Counted from the first letter of the stretch, positions 14,650-50,355 are shown. The stretch is 64,000 nt of DNA from Raillietiella orientalis (GCA_036172245.1 JAYWIR010000035.1:248001-312000); one strand, 5' to 3'. A program made the numbers and translations. Notes: generated from the letters alone by a model not told the origin.

Positions 14650-17600
14650 TCATCTAAATTGAAACATAATTTCCATTTTGTAAATCAGGTGTAGTGAGTT
14701 TAGCTTATTAAAACTTTTTGTTTTAATAAGCTGCAGCACAAGTAGTTAAAAAATTATGCACATGTCAAAATATTTACCTTGAAGACATTCCACGCAATTA
14801 ATGAATCAGGGATCTTTTCAGCAGGCTGCTTTTGTAATAAACTAAATAAAACACCTAATATAAATGTGACTAAGCATCCTATTGCTGAATACCACATGTA
14901 CGAGATCTTGTACAAATAAAAGTAATCTTCAGAGCTGAAAAGAAATAAATACATGCTAGATCTCAAATGTTTTTTTTTTCCTGGTATTTATTTTGACTAA
15001 TATACAACGAAATGGTATTGGATGATATGATGAAAGTCTTGTTTATATAGGTTATAAATGAAATGTGAACATTAACAGTGAAGACAAAGAACTGCTCTGA
15101 TGACACAATTCATTATTTCTGAAATTTTATGGATTGTTATATTGTTATCTTCATTCTAGAAGTAGATACTTGAATAATTGGGGCAGTATAAGAAATCAAG
15201 GTTTACTATCTGTAAATTCTAGAACTTTTGTACGAAATGTACTGTGTTATTTGTTGTTCCATTCACAATAAATTTTAATCACAATGGGATTTCAAATCAT
15301 TTAAAGGAAATGAAAATCACCTGCAACATGAATACTTACAGAGGATTTCCGAAAGATGTGTAGTTGGCAGTCAGTGAACTGTTTTGGAAACACCCATCTG
15401 TACACTGTGGAGCAGCAGTTGGTTTTGGTTTTGGAGTACCAAACCCCATCCAGAAACATAGGACAAGACCAACAATATATCCAACTAATGCACCCTACAA
15501 GAAAGAAAGTATGCAGTAAAAAATGTATCAAATATAAACACATTCTGAAGTATCTCTTAAGAAGTTTGAATTTTAAGAATCTTAAGAAGTTCATTCAGTC
15601 CTAACATACAGATAAACCAAAGATTAGGGCTGCAAAAATAAACTGGTTGAACAATACTGAAGTGAGACCAAAGCTGTACTTTAGGAATCTTAATGATTAA
15701 TTGCAAGAATTCATCACTTTTCTTATCAGATAGTGTGAATGAAAATACAGACAAAAGATGTAGGGTGCATGAAAAATAATAATTCGTTGAAGTTCTAATA
15801 TTATTCATGAAATTGCAACAAATTCGAAAATTATGTCAGTTTTGTGCTAGCTTTACTTGGTAAAACTTGAGATTTATGCATGCCATGAAAGGTAGGGAAG
15901 CAAAATGTACACTGAGAATTATAGTGAAAGGATCACAAGTTCTGTACTTAATTTAGAAAACTTCTGGTGGGAAGTGACTGACTTCAAAAGCAATTAAGGT
16001 AGTTCTCTAGAACGTCTTGAAATGCTCAAGCATTGATCTGGGAGAAAGGACTGGAGTGAAACAAAATGTAAGGATTCTTGGCATAATTGAGGTTATTGAT
16101 TATACTGAACAATATGTGAAAGATACCTTAAGTCTTTCTTCATTCATGACACAGTTTCATCCAAAACGAGATTCTAGGAATGGTGAAGAGAAGTTCTTAC
16201 ACCCAAGTTTCCATTTACAGTACAGTGAGCAGAAGCAGTTAGCATGATATATGTTCAAGTAGGAATAAAGTAAAAGAATCTGAGTTTCATTTACTCTTAT
16301 GTATATAATGGTATGTTGTGTGGTGAAGAGAACAAGCTCCTATTTATCAAGAGACCAAAATATGAATAACAGTAATAACAAAACATAAATATGAAACAGT
16401 AAACAACTTAAATTGATGCAGTAACATAGATTACCAATTTTGTTGCACGTCTTAAGAACATTCCCAAGGAGAATAATCCAAGCATTGGTCCTCCTACAAC
16501 AGCAAAAACTGTAAGTGCAACTTGTAGCACATTTCCTAACAATTTTGCCACAAAGGCCAAGACAATGGCCAGGATGCTGAATGCACAAACAAGAATTTTA
16601 GAAGCATATGTTTTCTTCTTATCAGTCCATGATTTTGAAAATGCAACCTAAAACAAGAGTTGTTGTAAGTATTTTATCTGATATAAATACTCTTCATAAA
16701 TAATTTAAGCTATGCAGATTAGGGGTTTACAATGATTCTTGAACAATGATTCTCAAGAAAAAATGGGCTTGTCAAATACCAAATAGGCTACTGTACATTA
16801 GGAAGACATTTGTAGATTGTTTATGTTAACTTTTTTCTGATTGAATTTATTGTATGAAATGATTCTGTTTGACTGAACTGTTTATGGAGCCCAGGATAAT
16901 ACAATATGAATTCTTATGACTGGTTTCAAGTTCCAGTTTTATATGTAAAATAGAAATAATTGAACCAAACCATCAAATAGTCTTCTATGCAAACTGCTGC
17001 AAGACAATTTACAGTTGATGAGATGGAGCTCAGAGAACCAGAAAATAGTCCAGAAATAAACAACCCTGGTAATCCAGGAACAGATGACATTGTCTCCATG
17101 ACGAACAGGGGCATAAGCTAAGGAGAAAAACAGTGCATGTTCTTCAATTCTGCAAATTCCAACCATATAAATGTAAAACATCAAACACAAGTATGAAACA
17201 GAAAGTCTGTTGTTACATTTCAAAAATCAAATGAAAAGCTTTATTTGAGGAAGTCTTTATAAATTTAACGACCATTTTATTAATATTTTTCGGGATGACA
17301 ACAGTACAGTACCACAAAAACTGAAAGAATGAACACTAAAGGGAAAATCATGAACAGATGTAGTACATCCAAAAAGTACAAAAACGAAAAAATAAAGACA
17401 TGAGAAAACAATCTTAACTGAATGATGCACCCACCTGATCAGGTTTTTGTATTTGTCCTGTCACTATAGGATCACATTTAGCATAATGTGCGTAGATGAC
17501 TAAACCTGCAAAGCAGGTGCTTAAGCTTAATGTACTAAGTATTGGCCACTGTATCCAGAGAGCTTTTTGAGCATTTTTCACAGTACTGCAAAAACAAGTT

Positions 17601-20418
17601 ATTACCCATGAAAGATTTACAATGATTACCTCACTGTAAGGAGACGTTGAACTTGGGTTTGGCTCACTCCATACAAGGATAAATACAGAAAGATTCCTCC
17701 AATACCTAATGACCACACTGTATGACGAATGGTTGGATCAAAATCAAAGCTAAAAAAAAAAAGGCTTCGTTAATTCGTATTTTTGGTTATTCTATCTGCA
17801 TAAATGCTGTATGACCAAAGATTAATAGTGCTTTATCTAGGAAAATCCTAATAGCTAATGCTACTAATAGATACAATTCTACTGTTTCATATGTATAACA
17901 TGGAATAATTAGGATCTGCTGTGTAATTATGGCACATACTGCTGAACAGAATTCACAAAAATCCCAATTTTCAAGAACTCAAACTATCATTTAGAATATA
18001 CATAAATAATTAATACTGAGTATTCAAATCATGTTTACAACTATCTGGAGAAATACTTGATGTAGAAAAGTCAAAAACAGAAGTATTTCAAAAAAACCCT
18101 AAGGCATATATGGCATTTTTGATTTGCACTTCACACCTACATTTCAAACAATTAGTTCAAACAAATTTATCCATGTAATTACAGACAAATCAGTTTTGCA
18201 AGTTGTGCACAGTAACATACTTCAAGGGCTGGATTCTCTCTCCATCATTTGAAATTCTCCAAATCTTTCCCAATCCACCGATTTCTAAGGAGCCAGCAAT
18301 AATTATGGCCCAAATTGCAGCAAACATGAGAACAGACTGAAATTGCAATTTTTAACCAATGGAACTAAAGGAAATTTTAATTTAGATTAAATTTTTAATC
18401 AATGGAACAAATCGCAATTGCTGTTACTAAAGTAATAAAAAAGATATCAACAATGAAAAATCGACTTATTGGAATGAAAGCTCTTTTATTGCTGTAACAA
18501 AAAATTTGAGAAACTCCGCAAATCACAAATACATAAACCAAAATTAACCTGTTGTTTTACAAATATGATCACAAAAAACTTCAAATCATATTCATGCAAC
18601 TGTTCTCAAAATCACATTTTGCTATTTAAAAATGCTTTGAAATATTTTGTTCATGAAGATTCTGATAAAAAAGGGAACTAAACTGATTTTACTTGAGTTG
18701 AATACAGAGAAACAATAAAGTAAAACTGTTGCCTCTCATATGCAATACTCAAACATTCAAATAGATTAAAATATGCAGTTTACATGTTCATGAAAAAAAT
18801 GCTGAAAGGAATTATGTGAAAAATGAAGATTAGTTTTTGATCAATACTTTGTTTGAAAGCTTTAGCAGATGGTTTACCAAAAAATTCGTATGTTTCCAGA
18901 TGAATTACTTTTTCTCTACTTCAGATTTGAAAATGACTCAAAAGACTACTGCATTTAAGTCACAAGAATTTTAACCACTTGGTTATCACCTCCTATTTTA
19001 AAAAATGTTTGCCCAACAATTTGAAGCTCCACAAAATTGAATAATGCTTTAGAAATATTACTAAAGAATTCATCAATAATTTTCGTATTACTTCAAAACC
19101 AAGTTCAGATGCAGGCACTGTTTCTGATGATTGTCTAACTGTGCATATTAAAGAATCTAGAATAGAAAACCTTAACACGATCCAAAATTTTTCCTGATTT
19201 AATTTTAAATAATTTATAATACACAAGTGTGCTAAAATCAAAGCTTTCTAAGTATGGCATAGTATTCTTACAAAGCTCAGTTTTAATGTAGAATGCTGCT
19301 GAAACATTCATCATTTGGATATCTAATATGCAAAAACCAGAATTCCATTTTACAGCTATCTCTTGTTTACTGATTTGAATCAAGAAGTTCTGATTCATAA
19401 GGACTATGATTACCACAATTGAAGAGCTGTAAGTCACAAGATCACTTAAAAACACAAACTTCATCAATCTGCCATTGCTAAACTATTGCAAGCAAAGAAA
19501 ATCCTAATTATCAAAAAAAAATCAAGTGTGCACTGAAAAGCACTGTGCAACTAATGGAGTAGCCAATGCTGACAGATTTAAGAAGAAATCTGAAATGAAC
19601 TTTTTCTGAATATAATAGATTTAACATAAACACCTCTGACATGTTAAATTAGAAGCAATGTTGAGCATTCAGCAACTTTCAAGTTATTTTAAGTATATTT
19701 CAGTGATTATTTCAGCCCAAATAATATCAACACTGTCTTTCAATACTTACTTGAAACACATCAGTAATAAGCACAGCTTTCATTCCGCCAATTGTAGAAT
19801 AAAATGCACATACTATTCCAATTGATAAGATAGAAAATTCTATGCTAAGACTTGTAACTGCTGCTAATGCTAATGCTGGTGCATAAAGAACTATACCAAC
19901 ATATAATACCATTTGAAGAATATACGTAAAGGAGGCTACATATTTCACTAAACTTCCGAATCGTTTTTCTAAATACTAAAAAATAAGCCAGATTGGTTCT
20001 ATACCCCACTTTTACGATGTTGTATCATAAATACCTGATAAACACTTGTTATATCAAGATTGTAGAAAACTGGTAAATATATATATGCTGCAATTGGTGT
20101 TGCTAATAAATAAGCAATATTTATCAATGCAAAATGTATTCCGTACATATAAATTTCTGCAGACACTCCTAAAAGAGTAATAGCTGACATCAGACTTGCC
20201 ATCAAGGAAAATGCTACTGGTAAAAAATTCATGCTTTGTCCAGCTAACAAGTATTCCTAGAAATTTTCCCATGGAAAATTGTTTACTCAGAAACACTGTA
20301 TACGTACTTGAGAAGTTCTCTGTCTCCCACCAGTCATTCTGTAATAAATACCTATACCTGCAGAAATTATGAGACATAATGAAAATACAACATAATCTGC
20401 TATGCTAAAAAATGCCAT
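14650..20418 (-). CDS. SLC5 sodium:solute symporter, sodium-coupled monocarboxylate/multivitamin transporter-like (SLC5A6/A8/A12 group)
   Basis: Eleven in-phase GT-AG exons: 20308-20418, 20035-20256, 19751-19975, 18221-18336, 17630-17749, 17435-17585, 16971-17117, 16435-16647, 15340-15494, 14778-14934 and 14650-14730 (last exon tentative). Motifs include [106 protein letters not shown] and ISYMWYS. Confidence 0.95.
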
Positions 20419-22913: not shown

Positions 22914-25719
22914 TCATAAATGGCACAGAAACTGGCAGTTCTCAACCGAATTCAGGATGTTTTAGTTGCCTATCGCGATTTCCATACTCAATGAAAAGGA
23001 CTTCCTGAATTTCCATTTCTAACAAAAATGGAATTTTTTTCAACAAATAATTCTGAGCCCAATGTTCGAGCCTCTCCCAATTTCTGCTTTCACCAGTGAA
23101 ATGTTCTCTTCAGGGAATACCGTGAATTAAAAACTCTGTAATCATAAAAAGGCTATTTTCGTTGGCACTTCCACGCCAGCACAATAGCTTTATCCAAGTA
23201 ATGTTACTTTCTTGAGAAAGCTGTAGATTTCCTGATCTATTTCTTCTTCTTGGTATTTAATTACGACTAACCAATCGTTTCTCCATAGATGAATTTGCTT
23301 CTTCGAAGGCAAGAAGTTACTTTTATATAAACAAATGAAAATTTCTTATAGAAAATCTTTAACCCGAAGATGAGACTTCGGCGTGCACTTTCTACAAATG
23401 CAACAAATTTCGTCCGGTTCTATTACTGCTTCTATGGATCTCAAAGAATCAAGAATTCTGTCTTTTGTTGTTTCTACGGATAGGATGCATGCATCTTTCA
23501 TGTTGGGAACCGCCCGTCTGGCTTATCTGGAAGATAATTCCGAAAAAGCTCAAAATAAGAACTCATTTTCGCTTCAATGAAATGCGTTTTTAAGGTTCCA
23601 AAAACTATGAACTTTTCATTTTTTTTTTCCGTCTGCCGAACACGTATGTTCCTTCATAAATTCAACGAACAAAGAGGAAAAAACATGTACTTGGATTTAT
23701 TTCTACCTTTCCTTTTGAAACTTCTGAACTCTTATTCGGCATTCTGCATCAAGCTATTCGCAATGAACTACCGTTGCTTTTAGTTACAAAGCAGATTTTC
23801 AATAGGTTTGTAAATGAATTACCAAGAAGAATGTAACGAGAGAAAAAGGGATTCGAGCTCTTTGTTCACTTGGGGAGTGCTCGTGTGGTATTCCAGGTGA
23901 ATCGAGTTCCACATACATTCGAGGGGCAGCACGAAAAGCCTCAACCCCACATTTTTTTTCTTTTTTAAAATGCTTTTGTTGCTTGCGATGCACTCGACGC
24001 AAACTCCGGAAAGTGAATCTGAGCACAGGGTTCCCACTCTAATTGAACGTCCAAAATCATGACTCGAAAAAATGAAGGGGGGACTTCTGAGGGCCGTGCG
24101 GCGGAAAGCGGGGCCAGGGTTAAGCAAGTCTCTGAGAGTTTCAAGCAGCTGGGAAATGCTCACGTGATGTAGAGATCAAAGCAAAATAAGCAGGAGGATG
24201 AAGGATCGAGCAGTGGCGATTATTCCTTCTTTTTTTTTTTTTTCAGAATTGGGATTCTGTTTTAGTTGCGCTTTCCAGTCTACTCTTTCAGCCTTCGCAT
24301 TTACTGACTGGATGAAAAAAACGCAGCAGGAAAATTCAAAAATTGTGATGCGTGGAGATTCCACCGGCAGATTAAGCTACGCGTCACCAACATGTGCGAG
24401 TTTTCCTATGTGGGGACCGCGTTCCCTGCATCTGCAGTGGCTCTCGAGAGCGCCGCTTCCCTATTTTTCCATTTTCACGCGCTACATCGCCAATTGGTAT
24501 CGACCCCGCAATCAAGACTCTCCATTTTTCCTTTCTACCTACTTGTTGGAAAGGGAAGCCTCCCAGCATTCACTCCATGGGAGCGTGCCGTGTTCCTGAC
24601 TGCACTGTGCCCGCTAGTAGTAGCTCCAGAGCAGATAGCTACCGTCTCTTGGAGATCATCAGCTCAGGTGACGATAGATCGGCGGAGTCGAGTTCCACAT
24701 TCCCATGGTTGGCGGGCACTTTACTGAGAAAGGCCTCACGTTTCCCAGAAAAGTAGGGGAGGCGTGGGAGAGGGCAGGTTTCCGGAAGCGAAGATAATGC
24801 TGAAGCACCGGAATCTGGTTTGAGTATTCTTTGCACTTGCGATCCCAACAAATTGAAACGAAGGGAAGAGGCACAATCTTCCGTCCACGTGCTGACGAAT
24901 GGGTACGGATTGGGTGGGGGACGGGCTGCTGCACGATGGATCCTCGGAAACCAAACTGCCCGCAGTCCGATCACTCAACACGCAAAGGATTCATCTCCGC
25001 CTCCTTCCCTTGCGGAGGACTGACGAAAACTAGCTATGTTTCACGTTGGCATTACGAGGTCACCGGAGCCCCAGCGTATGATCTAACGCAGATGCCTCGG
25101 AAAAGCGGACCGTGTGAAGTGATCGAGGGTCGAGGCTATCGGGAGCACCTTCGGTGGGAAGCCCTGCTGCCACCTGTTGAGAGTGCACTCCCTTCGTCAT
25201 CCAGTAGCTGCGCGTTCCGGTGACGCAACGCGCCTTTGGATTCGTGCGAGCACACGCGGCTTGTACGCACGGACTTTCCGCGCATATCGTCGCCGCATGC
25301 ACTCTTGCCATGTGTGAGCGCGCGCGAAACGTGCAGCTCGCGCACGGTAAAAGACGTGCACCGTACGGCGTGCGCGTGCCGGACTCTTCCACGGCACAGC
25401 GAGCGAAAACAATCCCACCACCCCGAACAACATGGGAGAAGAGGAGGGGGCCTTTAATGACTCCACCTGAAGATGTACAGGGGCCGACACGGGCAACTTC
25501 CCTTTCCCCCCCACTTCGTGGAGTTTTCCGACAAACTCCTAATTTGACCCCCTTCTTTATCGAGTCTTCTTCATCCCCTGTCTCTCTTGTTTCCAGGAAG
25601 AAATCCTGAAGGACCGCTCGCACCCTTAGGAGGAGCATCGGAGAGCTCGAAAATACTGCCACATGGGAGGGGGGGTTCACAAGGCTCTTGTAACACCGTC
25701 CACTCTCACCATCCGAAGG

Positions 25720-26210
25720 TGCGTTCCACGTTCACCCCCTAGGGACTACCCTCATTGGTCCGGGAGGGCTTCGAAGGAAGGAGTCCGTTCTTCTCTCACT
25801 CTTGGGAGGGAACCCCAAAGGGAACCTCTCTCTTATTCTCTCCATGCGCTGCATTGCGGTCCTCGCTAACCTGGAGGGACCCCTAGGTTTGCGAGGGCCG
25901 CTCCTGGTTTCTTATCCGGAGGGGGGCCGCAGGGACGCCTCCAATTCTCTCTGAGGGGCGCTCCCCGAAGACGGCTTCCTACCAATGCCGCGCCCGTGGG
26001 CCAACCCGCGTCACTCTGCAGGAAGGGGTGGACTCACAGCCCATGGCGCACCCCCCACCCCCTTCTCGGAGCCGATACTTCGCCGGGCGGGATTCGAACC
26101 CACGACGCTCGATGCCGCGCGCAGCAGCCACACGGCCGCTAATACGGGCCTCGCCCGCAACGGCACAGGAAGAGGAAGCAAGGAACTTCGCTCCTGGGGA
26201 AAAATGACTT
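25720..26210 (-). ncRNA. tRNA-headed, hairpin-rich element, copy 1 (putative Pol III RNA or SINE-like)
   Basis: Minus strand reads GGCCGTGTGG (A-box-like) ... AGCGTCGTGGGTTCGAATCCCGC (B box with an intact T-arm, ~26087-26109), then GC-rich hairpins. It shows blockwise homology to 48050-48645. Confidence 0.55.
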
Positions 26211-27352
26211 ACGTTCTGAATGCAGCTGCTATGAACACCACGACACCGGCACCGTGGGGAGCGAACCTGGACGCCCCCCCTTTCTTGTGACGGACTCTTG
26301 AAGTGGAGATGAGTTTCCCTCGCGCACACCCGATGCCACGCGTTGCATGAAGCGAGCAGGGTAGGGGTTGGGCAGAGGACTGCGGGCAACCGGGATGCAG
26401 CCCGCACGAGCTCAACTGCCACTGGCTGCGCATGTGTTCCTGGAAGAGTCGTCACCATCTGCTGTTCTGCCGAAGCCTCAAGGGGTCGGGGATCCCGAGG
26501 TTCGTCTCGAAGAGGTTCATCTGCCGTCATGTTCCCGGGAGGGGGGTGGAGCCTATCAAGACGCGCACACGTGTTGGTGCACGGAGGAGGAAGAGGGGGG
26601 GGAGAAGCACGCGTGGCCTTGCAGTGCGCCTCCTCGAGGGGGCGCCTCAGGGGTGCCTACTGAAGGGTGAGCATCGTGTAGGAGGAGGAGTTGGTCCGAG
26701 CCATTCCGGCGTCCGGCCGCACTCGGGAAAGCTGTCGTCCCAGACGCGTGCGGGAGCGACTGCGTCCTTCGCCGCAAGCCTCTCTGCCGGAGGGGAGAAT
26801 CGTCCTGAGAAGGGAGACTCCCATGAAATTCCTCTAGGCGATGGGCTGATGGGGGAGGAGGAGGTCGCGAGGTCACACGCTCCCCTTACTAGCCTCGGTT
26901 CTTACTGCCGCCTGTCAGTCTGTCGCCATCTCAGACAGCGGTGCAAACAGCGGTCCGGTGCGTCCCCCCCCCTTTCTTCTTTACAGGATCGGGAAGGAAG
27001 GGGGAGGGGACAGGACAGCAATTCACCCGAGGAGGGAGCGAAATTACGGAACTGGGAGCCGCCACCATCCTCTTCAACTCAGGAGACCTCGCGGGAATGT
27101 CAGGCTGTTCCGGAAAGGGAGGCGGTAGACGACGGCTGTGCTCGTCTGTGCAGGGACGGAGAGAGCTGTCGATCGCGATAGATCCTGGAGGCGGCAGGAT
27201 CGAGCGCTTCCTCTTTTCTCAGGGAAACCTCCCAGGTCGCGAGAGCAGAAGCCGCCGCCACCCCTTACACCATCTTCCTGCCCCTTCCCGATCCGTGCGC
27301 GTGCGCTCACGCCCTCCTGTCTCCCGAATCGCTGGCCGACCGGCGATCCTTC

Positions 27353-28036
27353 TTGACCCCACTGTCCGCGAACGCCCCTGCTGACCGGGACGCTGTGGCG
27401 GCGGGAACGCCAGGTGACCAATGGAGGAGGAATCCTCTCCCTTCCTCGCCCATCCCTTCCCGGTTCCCGGAACTTGGGAGGCAGCAGCTAGCGGGGTGGA
27501 GTCCCGTCCTACCTTCCTCTCGCTGCTTCCGACCGGGGGGACGCCTTTTCAGCTTCCTGAGGAGTGAATCCTCCACGTTTCTCAGGCAGCAACGGCCCGC
27601 CCCCTACGCTCCTGAGGACCTCTGCCGACGAGATGTGGAGCGCCTCGTCAGGGATCACCTCCCGTGCCGCCCGCCCACGCCGCGCCGATCTACTTGCCAG
27701 CCTAGGGGTCATCGCCCTTATAACCTGCCTGTGCTGCCTCGGTCCGCGGTGATCTTGACCGCCGTTATCGGCAAGAGGCGCACGCCATTGCAAGCCCCAC
27801 CGCCGCGGGTGAATGAGGGCACGGGAGGGAGGGCACTTCTGCATCCGGTGAGTGTCGTCGTGCGCTACCGCACTTGGCAGCGGCGTGACGAGGGTGGTCC
27901 TGCTGGCGGGAAAGACTCTTCCACAGGGTTTGCGGGCCTTGGCGCCTTGCCGTCTGCTGGTGGATGGGAAGTCAGGACGGCCCCACTTAGACCTCCGGAT
28001 GAGGGAGAGGGTTCGCCGACTCCGCGAGGGTGGTGA
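27353..28036 (+). CDS. Orphan ORF (227 aa) within the GC island
   Basis: Open frame with G/C-ending codons in its middle part (RLFSFLRSES...EDLCRRDVERLVRDHLP...SAVILTAVIGKRR...SVVVRYRTW). No family was recognised, and it could be a GC artefact. Confidence 0.25.
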   Translation: MTPLSANAPADRDAVAAGTPGDQWRRNPLPSSPIPSRFPELGRQQLAGWSPVLPSSRCFRPGGRLFSFLRSESSTFLRQQRPAPYAPEDLCRRDVERLVRDHLPCRPPTPRRSTCQPRGHRPYNLPVLPRSAVILTAVIGKRRTPLQAPPPRVNEGTGGRALLHPVSVVVRYRTWQRRDEGGPAGGKDSSTGFAGLGALPSAGGWEVRTAPLRPPDEGEGSPTPRGW

Positions 28037-31000
28037 TGGTGGAAAGACCGGAGACCTCCTTCCTACCGGGAATATAGAGCCACGCCACTCTCCCTCTTTC
28101 CCTATCCGCTTGTTTTTCCCTCTCTTGCATGCAGCGGAAGAGCCACCTCGCGGGTCCCGGTAGTGGCGCCGCGATCCTTCGCTTGATGAACATCCCAGAC
28201 GGCCCTGTCCTGGGTGCTCCTCGTTCGCTGCTGCCTCCACTCCCGCCATCTCTTATCTTCTTCACCACTCCTGCTACTCCCACCACCAGAAAAAAAAAAA
28301 AAAGCAAAAGAAAGGGAAGGGCATTCGAATGCATCTGACGAATGGCCAGGGTCCAGGAGAAAGGAGGGGAAGGGAGGATGGAGAAGAGAGTGAGGAGCAG
28401 GAAGGGGGCGAAGAATGAGGGAACGCAAGGGGGGAGAGTCTGGAGGAGGAAGATTGTTAACCTGTATAGGGCAACATGTGCAGCCAGCAGGAAGAGAAAG
28501 AGACGTCCAGCCAGTTCTCCGTGGCGGAGGTTGCCATCGACACGGGTGCAGCGGGAGAGCTGCGCGTACGCGTCGGAGGAGGAGGCGCTTGGATTGGGGG
28601 AAAAAAAAGGTCGAGTTCCTCCTCCCTCGGAACTCCTTCGCAGACGCAAGTGCGCCGCAAACGCGGGAACAGTAGGGAGTGGTGGAAGGAAGGACGGAGA
28701 GAGAGAGAGAGGTTCAGGGAAGCTTTCCCGAGAGGTGGTTCTCGTCCGTGGGTCCTCCTCCGCCAAGTTGGCCGCCAGCGAGTCCTGCCGACGATCCTGG
28801 GGTATTTCTGGTTCCTCCTGGGCAGCGACTTGCTCGCAATGAAATGCACGGCTTTCCCAGTCTCCTCCCTCTTCACGCGCGCGCGCGGGCGCGCACAACG
28901 GAGGGAGCGTGCACTCTCCTACATACACGGGAGGATCACGGAAGCCCTACGTGAGGGGGAAGGAGGAGGAGGAGGAGAAAAACCTACCGGATCACGCTTT
29001 CTACGCTCCCTCATGTCAGCGCCCGCGGTCTACCCTTTCCACCCTCCCCCCACACCTGGCAGTGCAGCGTCGAGGGAGTGCCGCCAGCTTCCTCCATGCC
29101 AGCTCTCTTCCCGCTTCTCCCCCTCCTCTCCTTTTCCCTTCCAATGCTGCAGTCTCCGCAACGGTCTGCTTTTCGGGGAGGGGGGGGGGGAGAGAGGGGA
29201 AGGCGGGTTCCTTCCTGTTTTCGAGACTTCATGCGCGTCGAGTCCGCGCCACGGGAATTTCTCGCGAAAGGGGAAAATCTTAGGGCGAGATGCTTCGGGA
29301 AGAAAGAAACGGACAGCGAGGAAGTGGGATGGAAAGGGGAGGGAAAGGCGAAGGAAAGAGCAGGTGCGTGCATGTGCTCGCTCGGCCGCAACCGGATTCC
29401 CGTGGCTCGCCCGCAGGAAGGGGGGGTTGGGATGGAGGGGAGAGGCAGTTCCTCCGGTCCTGGGACCACCGCGAGGAGGAGGTAGTGCTCCTTCCGGAGG
29501 GAGTAGCTGAGGCCCAGCCAGGGTTTCATGGAACCAGAATGGTCCCGGATAGCGGGTTCCTCGTGCTGACCGCGGCAACCCGCGTCGTTGGTGGAGTCTG
29601 GCTAAACTCGGACCCGCGGCGCGCCCCGGTAAGGTCACGAGGCGACAGGAGGGGAGCAGAAGCTTCGCTGATGCAGCAGCTGTGTGGAGGCTGTGCGGCG
29701 CGCTGTACCAACTCTGCTTCATTTGGACAGATCCTTCTTGGCTTTCTAGCGGGCGCCTGGCTGGGAAGATAAGATGAGCCGGAGTCAACAAGCACTCTGC
29801 ACCAAGGACTCGGCGCCCGCCCCTTCCTTCCTGGGGTGGAAGCGCAGCCTGCCTGGAAACCGTAACCAAAGAAGGAGGAAGAAGGGTATCTGAGCGAACC
29901 TGACGCTGCGGAGCTAGAGGTCACCGTTCTCACCCGAGGCCAGCGGGGGATGAGGGTTGGGAAGCTGAGAAGTGGGGTTCTTTCGGAACGGGGAATGCGA
30001 ACTTCGGTCTTTCCCGGAGCGCCTCAGGATTCCCATTTTTTGGAAGTGGAGCCAGGCGATTCCAGTTTACGAGCGTTCCCATTTGTCGAAAACGGCAGCG
30101 TCCTGCTTTCTCCTTGCTTGCCTTCCTGTCCTCCTCCCTCCTCCTTCCGAACACCTTCCTTTAAATCCCACCCAACCTCTCCTCCTTTGAGAGCTCCTGA
30201 ATCCAATTCACCATCCTTCTGGTGCTGCGTGGCTCCTCTCTCAACCCGTGACTCTTTTCTCATCCTCATTATCTCCTTCCTCATCCCTTGGTCTAGAGAA
30301 GGGAGGAGGAAGACACAACTTCCGTCACCCCTGTTCCCTTGCCTACTCTGCCTACCCCAGCTGCTCCTTCTCCTCTCCACCTCCCTTCCAGACCTCAAAC
30401 CGGGAGGGTGACGACCTTGGAGCCCGAGGGCGCCGCCGCTTCCCGGGTCACCTTGGTGCGTGCGCTGACCGTGCGGCGACCTCAGGAGGTGACCCTAGAG
30501 ACCCTGAATGAGTTCATCTCTAGTTCATTTTCATCAGGAATTCATCCCCAGAGCTGTCGCTAGCAGCGTCCAGCGGTCCCTTCATAGGCGATGAGCAAAG
30601 GTCGGGGCCCGAGGTCCAGCTCCAACCACGAAAACCTGGAATGGCTATCGTCCCTTCATTCCAGGACCGAGACTGAAGGGCTCATTGAAGATAGCAGGCA
30701 GATGCTGAGGGCGCGAAAAGACAAAGTGCAAGGTGTACTGAGGATCTCCTCAGGAAACAGTGATCCCTTTGCAGACGCGTTCGAGGCACCACCTGCAAAG
30801 GAGGACCAGAAAAAGAGCGCCTGCCCCTCACCTCATCCTTCACTACCACTTGTTGCAGGATTCATAGAAGGGTTAATTCCTGAGAGAACTCGGAAATTTC
30901 TTCCTTTCTCCCCTCATCGAGGGTGAGATCTGCTTCCAGTGCTCATGGAAACGGAGGAGGAACTCGAGCATGCGGTATTTGTGTTTCGCCTTGCTCTCCA

Positions 31001-34000
31001 CTCCGCGCAAGAGTCCCTGTATGGTCACCTCCCCCTCAATAGATCCTAGGTGCACCCTGTACGCTCTGTTTCCTCGTCCCTGGCATCTGACTGCTTTCTC
31101 CAGCCAGCCACAGATGGAGCCAACTCCTAGGGTGCAGGAGGATACCAGACAATCTGCATCTGGAAAGGAGACAAAAGGCCTGGTCCCGACACCTGAAAGA
31201 GCATCTTTGCCCATGTTATGCATCGAGAAATGCACCTCTCCAAGTGTCGAATCCTGGCCGGTGAGCAGAAAAGGCAATGCTCCCATGGGAAGCAACCAAT
31301 GTTTCTCAGCGGCTGCTCCCCATAGCTAGCCCAACCAGGCCAAATACCTCCCTGGGATGAAGCAACCTAAGTAAGGTGTGAGCAAGTGAGGTGTGACCTC
31401 ATGGATACACTACAAAAGAACGGATAGGCGGAAGTCCTCTTGGCTCACCTTCTAGGGATGAGTGCACACATTGGGACTACAAATGCAGGAGCACAAGTGT
31501 GCTGTGAGAGGCTTTCTGTGCCAGCATTCGCACTTGTTGCGTCTCAAAGAACAGCAGTTAAAAGTTGTTTCTTTCTGATGCGTTGGTGCAGTTTCGTGGC
31601 CAAATTCACAATTGGAAACTGTGAACCTTTAATGCCAAGGCAGGCCGAAGAATGCATGCACGAAAGAGATGGTGGGAGTCAGTGACACTCAACAGCTGGG
31701 CTGGTTATCTGAACTCGCACCGGTCCCAGAATCTGTTTCCGCTTGGTTCAATCCTTTGCTCCCGGCAATTTCAGGCTCACAAGCGCTGATTCATTTCTGC
31801 GCGCATGAATCCTGGCGCTCGAAAGTTCCTCGAAAGTCTCCTTAAATTGGAAAATTTCAGTCACATGGCGCTCCATTCACTTTCCTGGTGTGCCCAACGA
31901 ATCGCAGATGCAACCCACCACGAATGCGCCGCTCAAGAGGTTCATTGCATCGGACAGCACCTGTGACTTTTAAGAGTATTAAAAAATTCGAAACGGATGG
32001 AATGTGGCCCTTAGCCTGAAAACACCTAGGGATTTTCGCTCAATTTCTTGAGCAGGCATTTGGTTGATAGTAAACACCGGCAAATCATCATCACTTCCTT
32101 CGAAAGTAACCCGTGCGTGGATACCCGTAACCCACGCAGCTTCCGCAAGTTCCTGGAGCGGACACCGAACAACCACGTAACGGAGAAGCTACATCAAATG
32201 AATGGAGGATTTTCAATATCAGCCATTTTTTTTTACTTTGGCAGTTTTTATTTTCATTTTTTTGCGTGTACAGTCGATATTCATACTGCATGATAATGCC
32301 GTTTCTTGATCCCTCAGGTCAATAAATGTTTTTTTGCACTTGAAGGAGTACACGCGAAGAAAAAAAAAGGGGGGGGGGGGAAGAAAGCAGGAAAAAAAGA
32401 AAGGAGCTTTTAAAAAAAACCCTTCTCGGGTTTTTTTTTTTTTCAGAATTTGTTATGTTCAGTTTGGAAAAGAGACATGTTCGAAAGCGGAAAAGAAAGG
32501 GCATGCTCAAGTCAGTGACCGTTATTTGGTGAATTATGGTTTCAACGGCACCAGCGCGTTCGTCAGACACCCTCATCAGAACGCTGAATTCAGCTCAACA
32601 TGGAATGGGACCACGGCAGCGCTGAAAACGAACTCTGAAAATCTTCACGCACATTCACTTCCGCGACAGAAAACCAAAAAGCTCAAAGTCTCAATTTTGT
32701 CTGGAGCTTCGAGGAGAGGGCGTCCGCATACAAAGCTTTTTTTCCCGTGTATGGGAAACACTCGAGATACGGCAAAACTACTTGAAGCTAAATAGTAAAC
32801 ACACTTTCGTAAACTCTTCATTGTACTTGATGCTAGAAAGGTGCGGGGGATCCCCTTGAAATCCTTCTTTGCAGTACGCAAAGTCCAACTTAGGAAACAT
32901 CCTTTCTTTAAACATGCACATAAACTTCGAATTCCGGTTGAGGAGAAACCATGCGGACATACTTTTGTACAGTTTGCTTCGCCCTCTCCATTTGGGGCCA
33001 CTTACATCGGACTATTCTTTGGAAAAAACGATTCCTAGTAGGCCATCAGCTCGAAAAATCTGCAGATCACCGTACACCATTATTTTTTTTATAAATGTCC
33101 ATTCGCGAATGTTTCATGACCTCTACAATTCGACCTTAAGAGCAGTTGGAATCTAGTTCATGGTCATCACTGCCTGCGTAGTGAGATTCCTCCCTTGCAA
33201 ACTTTCAAGAAATATACAAGAATGCTTTGAAGCTCAATCCGAACCAAATCTTCCAAACTGAGATCAAGAAATTCATTTGGCTGTTTAACTGTTCAAATAG
33301 AATCATGGTTCATTTTTTTGGTTATTATTTTTTTTTTTTTTATCATGGTTAATGAGAAGCAATGGGGTCGCTTAGGGAAAATTCGGCAAGTTATGGCACC
33401 AGCAAATTATCTATGCACATGACACGCCGTGATTAAAGGAAATCAGGACAACGAATGCTACTTATAGAAAGAAATAACAAGGACTGGTTACGAGGAACAG
33501 AAGAATACTTCTCACAAACGAATTCGCTCCTGAGGGAAGAAATGAAATACAGTTCACTATTCCATTTCACACGTTCTTCAACTCTGTCATGTCAACCTGT
33601 CCCAAATACTTTCTTTTGCAAGAAAATTTGTACAATCCACTTCCATATCTACCACGTCGATCATTGTGTTTTGCCTTTGGTCAATGGATTCTCCACAAAT
33701 TGGCGTGAATGTTCAACTCACAACTTGGTTTTCTTGATATGATATTGTATCCAATAATCATGTTAGATGAATAAAAATTCCAAATAAACAACCAGGTCTC
33801 AAAACACAATACTCTTACTGGAATTTTGCAAAAGTGAACCAAGAACTGATATACAGTTACTGATGCTTTTTTTCAAAAAAATTGTTGTAAATCTGTTAAA
33901 GCAAAAAACAAAAACAAAAATGGAGTTTTTCCTAGAAAAGTAAACTGTAAAGATCATATGGAAAAGCAAATGAACTGAGATATCATTTACATTTTTAAAG

Positions 34001-34184: not shown

Positions 34185-36645
34185 TCACAAAACTGAGGCC
34201 ATGAGCAAATTTTTCATTTCAGGCAATGATGTTTCTGCTTGAGTACCCTCTTCTAAATGAAAGTTTAGAATAAGTATGTATTAAAAATAAAATGAACTAA
34301 CCTTTGTAAATTCTCTCATATGCATCTAGATGATTCGTAGTCACTACATATAAGCATGGAAACTCTATTATCGTTACACCTGCTAGATTCTTTTTAAGTG
34401 ATTGATACAGATCAAGTTCAAAGAACCTTAAATCAACAGATAAGAAACCAATTAATTTTCACACTTACTTATTATGTCCTTTGCTGCAACCTTCAGCCAA
34501 TAACAAGACATGACAATTAGTGAGGCCAGCAACTAGGTAGCTCCGAACAGAGGTGTTGATGTTGGGGTCCAACTCAAAATCAATATGTCTTGTCAAGGCA
34601 TCTGTGAGAATGGTGTTTTCTGAAAGTCTGAAATATGATATAATTGCAACCTATAATTCTCGCAATTTCATGGAAAAAATGGCAAGAGATACACAGTGTG
34701 AACTAACTACCTAACTATTCAGATAAACTAGCATAAATCAACATAGAATCATTAAAATCACGAAGATTATTATTAAATTAAATGTTGTTTAAAATTAAAA
34801 CACCTAATTTACAAAAATAACATTCTCGTAAAAAATATATATAAAGTGTTCTCAAGATGCTGATACCATTAAAATATTGTTTACCTCATAGAGGTTCTAC
34901 ACAGCAAACATGCTTTCAGCATAACGAGTTACCTTAACTTTTGGTCAGTAATATGACCAAAAATTAAGGTAACTCATTATGACACATTGTGTGCATGATT
35001 CAAATATGATCACTGTATTAACATGAGGAAGCAAATGCATTAAAATATGGATATTTTCAATCATAATTTTCCAAGGGAAACAAAAATTATGGTGAATAAA
35101 GTTTACCTGAAGTTGAGATTTTAAACTAGAAGCAATAACCAGAATTTTTCACTGGAACTTTCAAAAGTTCTCATACTTCATTCTGACATTAGTCTTATGA
35201 ATTGATATTAGATTCACTTTTCTACTTACAGCAAAAAAACTGGGGAGTTAACTTTCCTCCAAGAAAATACTGCTAACATGCATTTGACAATCACATCAGT
35301 TTTAAACATGTAGGCTACATTTTATACATACGTTTCATTTATTCACACAGATTCCGGACTAATATTCTGACATTATTCTTTTGTTGGAATCACGTAAAGT
35401 CTTATGAGTTTTCTCCAAATATTAAGTGAATGTGCCACAATTGGCATATTTCCCCTTTCCATGAAAAAGTTTTAAAAGAGACTTCACAAATTTCTTTACT
35501 ATAAGAAAGTATTAAGTTCAATTCAACTGAAAGATTTACTGTATTTGAAAGACTTTTTCGTCTTTGCTTTCGTGATAACGAAATTTTTCAGTTCATTTCT
35601 ATATATGATTTTCAGCTGATGCGGCAAGTGTGGACCGACAAGGGGCCAACGATGGATATTAACAATTATGTAACTAATTATAATGCTGTCATTAAAAAGT
35701 ATTTCCACATAATTGTTAATCATTTGCACAAATAAGTGGTTTGTTTACATTCAACTACTTTATCCAGTGACATATCTATGTACTTGCAATTGGAATTACA
35801 AACTAAATTTTTGGAACTATTCAATTCTATATTCCAATACCTCTCATCAATCACAGTACAATCTGCTTCAACTAGACGCCATTCAATTCTCCACTCAAGG
35901 ACATCATTTTTCCATGACAAGAACGTTGTATTGGATTTATGGCGAAAAAAGTGATACGGCAAGTAATACAGCAATGTCCCTCTTTTCTTGGCTGCATTTT
36001 TGAGTTTACACAAGTGCTGAAATTGAAATTTAAAAAGAATGAAATAAAACATACCTATTTAATAAAAATGTGGGAAAATATACTCCAAAAATAAACACTT
36101 TAGATGAAGACGTGCAATTTGTGTGAAATTTCAAATTACTCACAAAGGGTAGATCTTTATAACATTTTGAAAATTTCTGTGTGTTTTTATGTGCCCTTTC
36201 TACGCTTTCACCGATTTCTTCCAACAGTCCGTAATCTAAAAATTTATTACCAATTAAGAAAAAATAAAAATAATGAAATTCAAACTGGGTTATAAATTTC
36301 AGTTTTAGGAACATAAATTGATTCTTAATTCATGGTCGTACAAAGCATTCACCCTTATAGTGCTTACCTACGTTAAAGTAAACACTAAACAAATTTTCAT
36401 AATATACCATAATAAAATTACTGTTTTCTAAAGAAAGATACAATTATATTACCATGATATAAATTTGTATATGAAAAATTTCGTAATGGCACATACTTTG
36501 TTCTGTCTCGACGCCCGTCACAACGATAAGTTTCTTTATGTTTTCTAACACATGCCACACAGCAAGTTTTTATACCACAACCTGGACAACAGTACTTTGA
36601 TGCAGACTGAAGACAAATCTGACAAGAGTTTCCTGCTATCATCAT
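34185..36645 (-). CDS. ZNHIT6: Box C/D snoRNA protein 1 (zf-HIT domain protein), ~270 aa
   Basis: Exons 36453-36645, 36144-36235, 35841-36016, 34469-34627, 34302-34426 and 34185-34252 are all GT-AG and in phase. The zf-HIT is CQIC...KYCCPGC.IKTCCVACVRKHK...C.GRRDRTKYV, followed by DYGLLEE, LKNAAKKRG, RHKSNTT, WRIEW and SLKKNLAGVTIIEFP. Confidence 0.93.
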
Positions 36646-37193
36646 GAAAACAAAACAGACTAATGTAGTGCTCAGCAGTTTCACACCACTTCGTACAACC
36701 TCGGCTCCCAGACACTTCTGCGCACAAGAGACCGCACCTCTGTCCAAAATGAAACTGCCAAGTATAGAAGTTACAAATCCCGAGTGACATTTAGGAATTT
36801 TGAACACTGGTTTGTTAGTTTCAAATTGCTCCATGCAAACGAACAATTACATTTATTTTTAATATGAAGTGAATTTAATTGTAATTCAATTAAGTATTGT
36901 TTTTTACTTTTTTTTTTTTCTGAGATGGCCAACTGAACAATCACTTATAATTTCAAATTAGGAATCTGGTTGTAACAACATAGCACGATTGCTGATGTAA
37001 TAGCATGCAAACTACATACAAATATATCCAATAACTGTTTCACTATTTCATCTATAGTATTAAACCTTAAAGTTTAATGAAAAATAAAAAGTGAAAGTTA
37101 CAGTCATCTATAGAGCCAGAAAATTGCATTTTTTAGAATCCTTAAGAAGCTGTGAACGCATGTGTTCCATTACATTAAGAAGTACTCTGCAAG

Positions 37194-37278
37194 TCTTTTG
37201 TTGCACAGTAGTCACATAAACACAGTATTTATGTGACTACTCTGCAACAAAAGAGTAGTCACATAAATACTGTGTTTA
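37194..37278. repeat. Overlapping inverted repeats (A-A'-A arrangement)
   Basis: 37194-37220 pairs with 37228-37254 (26/27). 37217-37243 pairs with 37252-37278 (27/27). Confidence 0.9.
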
Positions 37279-39331: not shown

Positions 39332-39895
39332 ATGGAATCCTCGAATTCTTGTGGTATCATAACTGAAGCAGAATTTAACAGAGACATTAAAGAGTTTTTC
39401 CAAATTGCACAAAGGCTCAATGATTCCTGGCAATTGCATAACAAAGATGCACTCATGTATCTGTCAAATAGTTGGTTGTCTCATTTAATAAACCATGTAC
39501 CCAAACTGGACCAGTGTGATTCTGATGTGAAGGATTTGGCCACAAACTCCATGGTCAGATTTAATTGTTTCGTTTTTTATAGTTTTGCTTACTGTGTTCC
39601 ACTTTTGTATTTTTGTGCCTCCAACATATCAGGTTCACTGTTGTCTTTGGAAGAATCAATAGATTTAGAAACATGCGAATGGAAGATTAGTCAACAGGAA
39701 CATCCCCTTTTACCACGCCCTTTTTACGTTTTTCATGCATGTGACACTTCTGAAGTCATGAAACAATTACTGAGCACTGTTAACAAAAAGTGTAATTACA
39801 TAATTCCATGGCTCAGTGTTTATGGTCCTTCAATAAATTTACGTCTTTCTACAGATTATGCTAAAGTACATTTTCTTAGTCATGCTGATTCATAA
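39332..39895 (+). CDS. ATG10: Ubiquitin-like-conjugating enzyme ATG10 (187 aa, intronless CDS)
   Basis: ITEAEFN...LNDSWQL, YSFAYCVPLLYF...GSLLSLEE, ISQQEHPLLPRPFYVFHACDT (catalytic Cys) and NYIIPWLSVYGP.INL. A probable 5'UTR intron lies at 39162-39272. Confidence 0.92.
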   Translation: MESSNSCGIITEAEFNRDIKEFFQIAQRLNDSWQLHNKDALMYLSNSWLSHLINHVPKLDQCDSDVKDLATNSMVRFNCFVFYSFAYCVPLLYFCASNISGSLLSLEESIDLETCEWKISQQEHPLLPRPFYVFHACDTSEVMKQLLSTVNKKCNYIIPWLSVYGPSINLRLSTDYAKVHFLSHADS

Positions 39896-40047
39896 GTGCG
39901 AATCTAGAAAAAAATTAAAAATCTCAACCTATTTTAAGAGGTTTTGTTTGGTCATCAGCTTGCAAAAACAGTGGGTTTAAACAGACCTTATGATGGAGTA
40001 GATCAAAAAGATAGAAAAAAAAATTACACATAATTAAGCAGTGATAT

Positions 40048-47530: not shown

Positions 47531-48049
47531 GAGGAGCTCAACCAACAAAAGTAATAATGAAAACGATAAATAGAGATAGTGAAATCATCATTCACTAGTA
47601 CTAGATGATGGGTGACACAACAACCTCAAAAACAATATGAAGCATTTTTTCAAAGTAAGCAAACAAACATGTTTACTCGATAAGCTGCAAAACTTAGGGA
47701 TAAACTTTCAAACAAGTTACTTAAAGACCGAAGATGTCTCAGAGTCATTGAAATTAACAAAGGAAATTTCGAATTTTGGAAGCTCAGTGCAAAGAAGAGA
47801 AGTCGGAAATAAGCACTACTAGTAATTAATATGTCCGTCGAGAACTTATTTCTGTATGCACTGAAATGTGTTAAATTCGGAAAAAGGAGAGAGAGGGCAT
47901 GCGTCGAGGAGTTGACTGCTACGCTTTACAGAACTTGCATTGGTCGGGTTTTTATAAACTTTTCTTCTCACCAAGATTCAGCGCTCCTTCACCTGAAAAT
48001 GAATAATGTGAATCATGTAAGGTGAGACCATGTAAGGTGATTGTGCAAA

Positions 48050-48645
48050 CGCCATTTTTCCCGCGTCGGAGGCCGTGTGGTTACGGTGGTCTCCGCGCGT
48101 GCCACCAGCAAGCGTCGTGGGTTCGAGCTCCTTCCGCAAGATGGCGCTGGTAGGCCTGCATTCATCCGGGTGCGGCACTGGTAGCGGTTGAAACAGGATA
48201 CCCCCCGATGAGGGCCGGGACAAATGGGAGTCGACCTCCAGGTCCTTCCAAGGATCAAGGAGTGGGGAGTCCCCCCCCCCCGATTGTGAAGGAGCGTACC
48301 CTCCATTCCGGGGAGACTTTCCGCGTCGTACTGATGTACCGCCTCTCCAGAGAGTGTAGAGAGGCGAGCCGATCCCTTCGGGGAAGATGCGTCCTTCTGA
48401 ATTTCGGAAGCGTCCCTTCGAGGATCTTTTCGGAGGAGTAATAACAGGAGCAGATCCCTTGCGGGGGATCCGTTCCTGTTTTTCCCTTCGGAGACAACCA
48501 GAGTGAAGGTGATCTCAATTTCCGGGGACCCTCCCCAGGCGTGAGAGGAGCGGATTCCGAGTCCTTCCTGTATTCATAGGGCGGACCCTTCCGAGGTATC
48601 CCCTATCTTGAAGAATTACCCGCTCTCGGGTGGCGTGGAACCGTA
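48050..48645 (+). ncRNA. tRNA-headed, hairpin-array element, copy 2 (putative Pol III RNA or SINE-like)
   Basis: GGCCGTGTGG at 48071 and AGCGTCGTGGGTTCGAGCTCC at 48111-48131 are followed by about a dozen consecutive hairpins at 48300-48631. These include TCCC-TTCG-GGGA and a ~16 bp stem (48443-48480) that ends in a T5 run. Confidence 0.6.
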
Positions 48646-50355
48646 TCGAAGAACTGCAGAGACAGAAAAGAAGGATTTCCATCGTCAAGCAAATTTACTA
48701 GAGTTTTGCAGGTTCAAAAGTAAATTGAGAAGCATTTCGAGACAGCTTACGAAAATCACCTTTCTTCCGATTACGACTTGCACTTTTTGAATTATATGCC
48801 TTTTATTCGTACTTTGGACTCGAAATATCAACATACGCATGCTTATGAAAACACTGGATGCAAAAAAAGAGGCAATTTTACCGATGGTAAGGTCTCTTTA
48901 GGGTCCTGCAACCTGGAAGAGGAAGTCGGTGAGTGCTATCCACGAAGTGCTCTTCGTGGATTCCTGTCTCTCCCGGCCCTCCACGTAGAGTGCAACAGAG
49001 TTCCATAATGGTACAGCAGCTGATCAATTATTATGGTTTAAAGGGTTCAGATTCTCGGAAAGCAAATCTCGATTCTTTTCTAAATGAGATTTTTAACAAC
49101 AGATTTGATTTGGGTATTTTGTAAAAACAAAATACAAATCTCAGCGAGAAATGTGCAAAATATTTTAACGTTCATTTTCAAAGTAACTAATAACACTGTT
49201 ATTGCGAATGCAGGAATATGAAGGAATGTATTCTTCTCATTGTAAATGATCTATGATGCTGTATTTAAAAACAAAAAAGAAAACAAAAAAACCCCCCATA
49301 AAATATGTGATTGCAATCCTCAAAGCTGGAAGTTTCGTCATTTAAGATTTTTGAATCGTACCCAAATATAAAAACAAAATTCTATGAAGTATCTATAAGG
49401 TCAATAACAGTTATGCAAGGATGGATTGTTAACTATTAATTATTTAATGATCTTGATTCCCAAACATAAAGGTTTCATTGCAGCGAAGAATTTACGAATA
49501 AACATTCGACAGATTTGAAATTTCAAACTGTACAGTGGAAGAATACTTACATATACAGGTATTCGCCCCCCCCCCCCTTCCCCTCCCGGTTTTCGGGCTT
49601 CTGGTGGAAGTCCGAATCCGTCTATGACAAACCGACATAGAGCTGTGGCTGCAGAGAAGGAAGAGGAAAAGAGAAAGAGAGGAAAAGCGAGGTCACAGTG
49701 CTTAGAAAAGGTTCTCTCTGGAGGGAATTCGGTGATGCTTCCTCAGAGTAGAAACAAATACAATTAAACTGCCTCGAGGGAAAGGAAAACCCATGTGCCC
49801 TGACGCTGATGACAGTCAAAATGCAGGTTCAGCATTTGTTTCATTTTTGGTTGGTGGAAAACTGCGGAATGTCGAGACGACGAGAGAAACTCTTCCGTGA
49901 ATGTAACTTTCCTTGGTTGGAGACATTCCCGTTTTAAAAACAAAAGCAAAGCAAACACCACTGATTAGAGAATTATGAATTTCGTGCTGGACATTATGGA
50001 CGCGCGTTTATATATCTATAAATGAGAAGTGAGAAGAGAGGGTTGTTTCAGAGTAAAAAAAAAAAAAAAAAAAAAAAAGGATTTGTACAAACTAGCACAC
50101 TACTTTGGCATCACCTTTATTAAATAGTTAGTTTTGGGATGAAAAATGGAAATTTTAAAGTTATATTCAATGAGAAAAAGCAAAAAAATAAATAAATAAA
50201 AAGACCTGATCTGAATCGATCTTAAAGGTATAGGAGCAATCAGAGATAGGAGAAGCGTGAATGGAAGTGGAAATCGAGGGAGGTGAGATTCTTTTTTTTT
50301 TCTATTAAGGGCCAGTAGGCGACTTCATGGGGAGATCGCTTCTATTGACCTAGGC

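Follow-up and report, generated by a model that had tools for sequence, protein, structure and literature searches.

A 64,000-nucleotide stretch of the Raillietiella orientalis genome (GCA_036172245.1 JAYWIR010000035.1:248001-312000; the window hereafter, with positions counted from its first letter) holds two GC-rich, non-coding sequences, copy A and copy B, which are homologous, diverged and inverted relative to each other. They lie 22 kb apart and are not in tandem, with A inside a GC-rich island and B alone in AT-rich DNA. These sequences are most likely relics of a mobile repeat with a decayed tRNA-like piece, and they do not constitute a demonstrated new RNA gene. Spelled out in full, the reading is one that we hold at about even strength: A and B would belong to one interspersed repeat, GC-rich and non-coding, as diverged copies or as variants; the repeat would include a tRNA-related segment that has decayed, and A would reside within a larger insert. 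An earlier interpretation made from the sequence alone (the sequence-only reading) had described the two loci as a tRNA-headed, structured element and a candidate family of RNA polymerase III (Pol III) RNAs or of sequences akin to short interspersed elements (SINEs).

The course of events that we propose is as follows. A and B would both represent a repeat of approximately 0.5-0.6 kb, either as old copies that have diverged or as subfamily variants. The repeat would bear a decayed tRNA-related segment and would therefore be SINE-like or an unclassified non-autonomous element. B, in AT-rich intergenic DNA approximately 4 kb upstream of the alanyl-tRNA synthetase (AlaRS) gene, would represent a solitary insertion, while A, in the opposite orientation, would sit inside an 8.18-kb GC-rich unit that resembles one insertion with a 20-bp target-site duplication. 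The repeat would have been mobile, presumably by retroposition with the enzyme of a long interspersed element (LINE), and the shared blocks would be inherited sequence rather than functionally constrained RNA.

Homology and borders of the two copies

The sequence-only reading had listed eight sequence blocks shared in order by two inverted loci, and this description is borne out: all eight are present where stated, and they follow one another on B as they do on reverse-complemented A (Table 1). It had also staked its case on a significant alignment between the loci, and nhmmer returns one at E ~1e-4. With A as the query, B is recovered in two matches, 48064-48434 with E 9.6e-5 and 48376-48576 with E 1e-4, and the converse search recovers A at 25970-25775 (E 0.0031). 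No third copy was found in the window by nhmmer, the remaining matches being self-antisense hairpins. Across the whole window and both strands, A and B are reciprocal-best non-self matches, with a score of 38.5 versus 29.25 and 27.0 for the next-best matches. The second-best match of A, which accounts for the 29.25, is located at 27150-27950 (minus strand) in the same orientation within the island; it shows spotty identity of ~60% without long blocks, and may reflect an older internal duplication or shared composition.

Several significance tests were used because plain blastn recovers just an exact 16-mer between A and B, and MAFFT global alignments of the two are unstable and inconsistent. 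With composition-aware scoring, the body of the element without its head scores 51.2, whereas the highest control scores are 38.5 for 80 island windows taken on both strands and 36.6 for 240 unrelated GC-rich prokaryotic or metagenomic loci that were fetched for sharing the 16-mer. The A-B pair ranks first of 6332 such comparisons (mean 21.2, sd 4.2), which places it ~7 sd out. Head and body each exceed every within-window control in three of four scoring schemes. In the fourth and strictest (2/-3/-6/-1), the head again exceeds every control, and 7 of the 168 control windows compared with the A body equal the observed body score. Two additional statistics are weak. Permissive Smith-Waterman alignment gives 178 for A-B versus 107 +/- 10.8 for 200 dinucleotide shuffles, none of which reaches 178, and is weak because another island pair scores 130.5-157.5. 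The exact-block chain gives 37 versus maxima of 19-20 in 152 and 138 island controls, and is weak because unrelated prokaryotic loci sharing the 16-mer reach 35.

These weak statistics are where a coincidental resemblance, produced by GC-rich, hairpin-rich, low-complexity sequence together with a common T-arm-like 16-mer, would find its footing. The 16-mer alone has at least 120 matches in each of two collections, none of which resembles the element beyond chance, and approximately one chance 16-mer repeat is expected per 64 kb by our own arithmetic. It is not diagnostic: of the 240 fetched loci, 189 carry it outside any predicted tRNA, and in the 51 that have it within one the tRNA is mostly Pro-UGG. 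Unrelated loci with the 16-mer come close to A-B in the block chain and also in Smith-Waterman score (34.75 versus 38.5), and under permissive gaps another island pair is equally high. We nevertheless regard coincidence as very improbable, as the nhmmer E values of ~1e-4 include that program's own composition correction, and the body score, the first rank among 6332 comparisons, the reciprocal-best relationship and the results in three of the four schemes all speak against it. A two-block pattern gave 0 matches in metagenome, viral and prokaryote contig collections.

Strict gap costs resolve the homology into four colinear segments, together ~180 nt at 77-90% identity, with CATTTTTCCC and GGCCGTGTGG upstream of them and CGTGGAAC at the end. 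An anchored alignment of A and B has 344 shared columns, 275 of them identical, and contains eight indels of at least 10 nt, which add 110 nt to A and 199 nt to B, in addition to 31 small ones. Copies of other repeat families show large indels just as commonly. In its middle part the alignment is ambiguous. The CGCC..GAGGCG hairpin that the sequence-only reading had seen in both copies is indeed present in both, but the hairpin of A at 25960-25936 aligns better to 48389-48412 of B than to the proposed counterpart at 48340-48366.

The borders of B are sharp. At 48050 the GC content steps up from 0.36 to 0.68, at 48650 it steps down from 0.56 to 0.38, and the homology ends at the same places, as expected for a discrete inserted unit. 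The flanks of A remain GC-rich, in line with the earlier statement that one copy is embedded in the GC island. The observed/expected CpG ratio (CpG o/e) is 0.83-0.94 in the two copies. The absence of an A-rich tail and of a target-site duplication, also noted earlier, holds at B, where no direct repeat of at least 6 nt spans the borders, none that is convincing occurs in the ~2 kb to each side, and neither an A-rich nor a simple-repeat tail is present. Terminal repeats were likewise not found at B. Around A just 6-mer direct repeats occur, one of them inside a conserved block.

Table 1. Positions of the two copies, their parts, the surrounding island and the genes of the window
Feature	Position	Strand	Remarks
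Copy A	25715..26212	minus	~498 nt, 63% GC, within the GC island; from blocks, nhmmer, segments and anchored alignment
Copy B	48047..48650	plus	~604 nt, 59% GC, alone in AT-rich DNA; from blocks, GC profile and nhmmer
Block CATTTTTCCC	A 26206-26197 / B 48053-48062
Block GGCCGTGTGG	A 26137-26128 / B 48071-48080
Block AGCGTCGTGGGTTCGA	A 26109-26094 / B 48111-48126
Block with 16/18 identity	A 25996-25979 / B 48167-48184
CGCC..CAGAGAG..GAGGCG hairpin	A 25960-25936 / B 48340-48366
Block CAGGAGC	A 25906-25900 / B 48445-48451
Block GGGG..CCCTCCC..GTGAGAG..CGGA.TCC	A 25816-25780 / B 48524-48558
Block CGTGGAAC	A 25730-25723 / B 48634-48641
Segment 1	A 26094..26114 / B 48106-48126	A minus	19/21 identical, contains the exact 16-mer
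Segment 2	A 25979..26026 / B 48130-48184	A minus	39/47 identical
Segment 3	A 25928..25970 / B 48376-48420	A minus	34/40 identical
Segment 4	A 25773..25843 / B 48490-48567	A minus	54/70 identical
Degenerate tRNA-like cloverleaf	26079..26160	minus	82 nt with a long variable arm; ARAGORN labels it 'Ser(gct)' once its threshold is lowered
B box GGTTCGAATCC	26090..26100	minus	perfect consensus, T arm of the tRNA-like piece
B-box-like GGTTCGAGCTC	48120..48130	plus	copy B, one mismatch, T stem not complementary
TTTT (48427) and TTTTT (48479)	48427..48483	plus (proposed sense)	inside B, before segment 4; candidate Pol III stops
Strongest hairpin of A	25855..25904	minus	-30.8 kcal/mol (60-nt window), immediately following block CAGGAGC
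Strongest hairpin of B	48430..48489	plus	-30.8 kcal/mol, matching position, unrelated stem; nhmmer self-antisense match
GC island	24251..32430		core 60-66% GC, non-coding, contains A; candidate single 8,180-bp insertion
Left 20-nt direct repeat TTTTTTTTTTTTTCAGAATT	24231..24250	plus	perfect; candidate target-site duplication
Right 20-nt direct repeat TTTTTTTTTTTTTCAGAATT	32431..32450	plus	identical, exactly 8,200 nt from the left copy
PIWI-clade protein exons	PAZ 2-433, Piwi_N 466-1065	minus	Pfam
Sodium:solute symporter	16411-20256	minus	Pfam
BCD1/zf-HIT protein	35723-36846	minus	Pfam
Atg3/10-like protein	39329-39892	plus	Pfam
AlaRS	40513-44077	minus	Pfam

The tRNA-like piece and RNA folding

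Copy A carries a decayed tRNA-like piece, of which B keeps only part. ARAGORN at its default setting reports 0 tRNAs in the window; at a threshold of 95% or 90% its single match is c[26079,26160], the degenerate cloverleaf in A. At 80% it gives 37 noise matches, and the cloverleaf of B, in another register, is among them. The B-box consensus GGTTCGANNCC has 15 matches in the window within one mismatch, and the sole perfect one is that at 26090-26100 (minus strand) in the T arm of the A piece. For the A box TRGCNNAGTGG, the window has 7 matches within one mismatch and neither copy is among them, the block GGCCGTGTGG being two mismatches away. In A the shared block CATTTTTCCC stands 37 nt upstream of the cloverleaf that ARAGORN reports; in B it directly precedes the tRNA-like part. 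The tRNA-like head therefore seems not to be 5'-terminal, although this 10-mer could be a chance match (by our estimate, ~0.01). Of the earlier description of a tRNA-headed element, a tRNA-related piece is supported in A by the cloverleaf and the perfect B box; in B the piece is degraded, and the A box fails in both copies.

The Rfam search to which the sequence-only reading had pointed yields 0 matches at the gathering score in the window, and at E <= 10 it yields hairpin-type noise together with tRNA-Sec at 26082-26149, at 14.2 bits (gathering score 47) and E 8.2. When compared to 73 prokaryotic tRNAs from the 16-mer-sharing loci, the best identities are 42/55 for A and 44/60 for B. Identity of at least 60% over at least 60 nt is seen with 2 of the 73 tRNAs for A and 3 of the 73 for B, a level that 10 of 40 random island segments also attain against this purely prokaryotic bank. 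The T4 and T5 runs on the proposed sense strand of B are potential Pol III stops, and a Pol III transcript would therefore stop before the last conserved blocks. On the sense strand of A, no T run of this kind occurs inside the element.

Neither copy shows signs of coding. A tblastx comparison of the island with the B region gives nothing better than E 0.045, none of the 72 open reading frames (ORFs) of the island reaches a Pfam cutoff, and the long island frames have about equal GC1, GC2 and GC3, unlike real exons. The ORF over the head of A has no homologue that a protein search could find. The ORF over B was considered as a gene and rejected, since its 4 matches are all sums of weak (~23 bits each) matches to tandem repeats of the Ig/fn3/cadherin type and are spurious.

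The sequence-only reading had attributed the pattern of conserved blocks and variable spacers to selection on RNA structure, and our tests on A and B give no sign of such selection. Relative to shuffled sequences, the sense strand of A folds with z -0.01 and its opposite (plus) strand with z -2.69; for B the values are -2.50 on the sense (plus) strand and -3.94 on the opposite (minus) strand, and the 14 control folds from the island lie between -1.25 and +1.55. A special strand, if there is one, would be that opposite the tRNA-like orientation, which in both copies is the better-folding one. Versus column shuffles, folding the 344 shared columns to a consensus gives z -2.2 in the sense and -1.4 in the antisense direction. 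Compensatory pairs number 6 (sense) and 7 (antisense) versus 4.5 and 4.6 expected from 40 column shuffles each, a comparison with little power for two sequences. The runs of identity (longest 16; three of at least 10; six of at least 8) match a model of evenly spread mismatches at ~80% identity across the A/B alignment (P 0.22, 0.59 and 0.71), and therefore the "conserved blocks" need no special constraint. In Rfam, the strongest hairpin of A has only miRNA-like matches below threshold. Windows at or below -30 kcal/mol are found 17 times among 1408 in the island. The most stable 60-nt fold of the island (-38.8 kcal/mol) is at 25245-25304 on the minus strand, ~400 nt downstream of A, in a GCGCGCG-type stretch.

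With these data in hand we weighed the notion of two paralogous genes at A and B, or of a gene with its pseudocopy, for a structured non-coding RNA of ~0.5-0.6 kb. It would be transcribed by Pol III through an internal promoter of the B-box type, or by another polymerase and possibly from the opposite strand, and the hairpin insertions would be tolerated expansions. Structural RNA genes form GC-rich patches in AT-rich genomes, and B is a sharply bounded patch of this kind. The fold scores of B and of the plus strand of A fall outside the range of the 14 controls, the strongest hairpins occupy a matching place with differing stems, the consensus fold reaches z -2.2 on the tRNA-sense strand, and A has its perfect B box and tRNA-like fold. 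Set against this are the neutral z of the proposed sense strand of A, a better-folding strand that lacks the tRNA-like promoter, compensatory pairs close to the shuffled level in two sequences that are too few for covariation, block lengths that need no constraint, the T runs within B, the poor A box, and an Rfam search that gives no family at the gathering score and only noise at E <= 10. On balance we consider such RNA genes unlikely. A more specific version, that B is the free-standing gene and A a copy in the 8-kb element for an undescribed animal non-coding RNA of ~0.5-0.6 kb, appears quite unlikely; such an RNA would be composed as proposed of conserved segments, a tRNA-like module serving as a promoter or as an RNase P/Z signal, and a large hairpin kept in position though not in sequence, and it might be read from the opposite strand.

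The GC island and its 20-nt direct repeat

The island that contains A is bracketed as a whole by a perfect 20-nt direct repeat, TTTTTTTTTTTTTCAGAATT, consisting of T13 followed by CAGAATT. Of the 29 A/T runs of at least 10 in the window, only this pair has a common 7-nt flank, and we estimate that such a pair would arise by chance with a probability of ~0.025, before its position at the island edges is counted. The perfect repeat suggests that an insertion of GC-rich non-coding DNA has happened at this locus, and the likeliest reading is that the island is a single 8.18-kb non-coding insertion carrying A. LINE-type enzymes make long target-site duplications. No poly(A) abuts the 20-nt repeat at either end of the insert, and within the 8,180 bp there are no long terminal repeats (LTRs), terminal inverted repeats, tandem arrays (Tandem Repeats Finder) or protein domains. 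An LTR element, an element with terminal inverted repeats and a Helitron were each considered and set aside, as none of these ends is found in the sequence. A lies 1.46-1.96 kb from the left end of the island; therefore 5' truncation of the island does not by itself account for B.

Both junctions of the insert are locally palindromic, the left one as CAGAAT-TGGG-ATTCTG (24244-24259) and the right one as A8-CCC-TTCTC-GGG followed by the T run (32412-32443), so that the insert ends mirror the adjacent flank. The palindromes might reflect how the junctions formed, or chance.

A duplication at the DNA level, without an RNA intermediate or an element family, would offer another origin for the two copies. 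Ectopic repair, segmental copying, or the uptake of a fragment into the 8.18-kb insertion could have multiplied a piece of non-mobile GC-rich DNA, for example an unmethylated CpG-rich regulatory region or foreign DNA. B has no tail, target-site duplication or terminal repeats, and a Pol III transcript starting at the tRNA-like part would not include CATTTTTCCC, which lies upstream of it. Both copies have a CpG o/e (0.83-0.94) like that of the unmethylated parts of the window, whereas gene bodies have 0.22-0.35, and both GC-rich regions are located ~4 kb upstream of genes on the minus strand, namely those for AlaRS and the sodium:solute symporter. The abrupt borders of B at the ends of the homology, however, are better accounted for if a defined unit was inserted than by random segmental copying, the two copies are oriented differently with respect to their neighboring genes, many large indels separate the copies, and there is no flanking homology past the unit. 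We view duplication of this kind as a minor possibility.

Classification of the proposed repeat and its genomic setting

SINEs have reported lengths of 75-662 nt, and SINEBase describes them as interspersed sequences of less than 1 kb with at least 100 copies that match a tRNA at 60% identity or more across 60 nt or longer (PMC3531059). At 498 and 604 nt, and non-tandem, A and B agree with the size and interspersion given in that source as far as the just two copies assessed can tell (PMC3531059). The B box is perfect in A and has one mismatch in B. Since an A box, a tail and target-site duplications are not found in A and B, we call the element SINE-like rather than assigning it to the SINEs. 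Like the tRNA-derived SINEs described there, it is short, non-coding, interspersed and GC-rich, with a B box in a tRNA-related segment, a body of obscure origin and copies that differ by internal indels (PMC3531059). It departs from them in that the tRNA-like part seems not to be 5'-terminal, the A box is poor, and B has neither tail nor target-site duplication but does have internal T4/T5 runs.

Comparison with other known systems is less close. Composite non-coding retrotransposons include the hominid SVA, to which the island bears likeness in being GC-rich and non-coding, having a 20-bp direct repeat and containing a SINE-like piece in one orientation; it is unlike SVA in that no poly(A) stands beside the repeat, no variable-number tandem repeat is found (Tandem Repeats Finder) and its size is several times larger. 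The tRNA-like fold of A lies ~6.2 kb into a GC-rich non-coding unit on the minus strand, reminiscent of the mascRNA of MALAT1, but the cloverleaf is sub-threshold and B lacks a long GC-rich unit upstream. A MALAT1-type triple-helix context was sought and dismissed, as there is no A-rich tract and there are no paired U-rich motifs upstream of the tRNA-like piece. VA RNA and vault RNA are ~90-160 nt. The adenovirus VA RNA and vault RNA share the internal B-box-like motif with our element, which differs from both in its shared unit of 500-600 nt, the internal T runs in B and the lack of an Rfam family. A full-text literature search with strings from the element matched only the T arm of an E. coli tRNA, and nothing relevant.

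A number of observations weigh against the interspersed repeat as we have described it. Just two copies are known from the 64-kb window, no partner LINE is in view, and across the whole window Pfam detects neither a reverse transcriptase nor any further transposon domain. In the gapped alignment, 39 indels stand beside 69 substitutions and the transition/transversion count is 30/39, and therefore parts of it may not be homologous. B retains 59% GC, a CpG o/e of 0.94 and sharp edges amid DNA of 31-38% GC, which is odd for an old neutral relic that has diverged this far from A. Both strands of B and the plus strand of A fold better than the island controls, and we roughly estimate at ~0.05 the chance that the strongest hairpins of the two copies, with unrelated stems, would fall at a matching position. 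The bare borders of B, the unmatched A box, the apparently internal position of the tRNA-like head and the T runs that would truncate a Pol III transcript belong to the same side of the account.

The window as a whole is animal nuclear DNA, with genes assigned by Pfam over open frames (Table 1). The best PDB matches of the PAZ exon are Piwi-like 1 and Siwi, which are metazoan PIWI-clade proteins, and that of an AlaRS exon is cytoplasmic AlaRS. The C-terminal exon of AlaRS (40513-42207, minus strand, 565 residues) matched two proteins in a word-indexed search, at 24-25% identity; either this half of the protein is unusually divergent, or eukaryotic AlaRS sequences were crowded out of the candidate list. 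B was considered as the AlaRS promoter and rejected, as coding exon 1 (43880-44077) is ~4 kb away. Against a background of 30-45% GC, two segments stand out, at 24342-31408 (7067 nt, 60% GC) and 48006-48657 (652 nt, 58% GC). CpG o/e is 0.22-0.35 in the symporter and AlaRS gene bodies (16000-20000, 40000-44000) and ~0.8-1.0 in intergenic DNA and both GC-rich regions. Mosaic CpG depletion is the pattern of invertebrate gene-body methylation, and tRNA-derived SINEs are common in animal genomes that show it. Two further repeats were observed in the window. An AT-rich direct repeat of 83 nt with 78% identity (6225-6307 and 51087-51169, 45 kb apart) appears to be another dispersed repeat family. In AT-rich intergenic DNA at 37194-37278, near-perfect nested inverted repeats have arms of 27-30 nt that are 93-100% complementary and 1-8 nt apart.

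If the two copies do represent a repeat family, the repeat library of an AT-rich invertebrate genome would gain, as routine annotation, a GC-rich element that is SINE-like or unclassified, and such a family would account for the sharp GC-rich patches in that genome. The island would be of interest in its own right, since a non-coding insertion of 8.18 kb and 60-66% GC, made in one piece and flanked by a 20-bp duplication, would be unusual as a large mobile or transferred unit.

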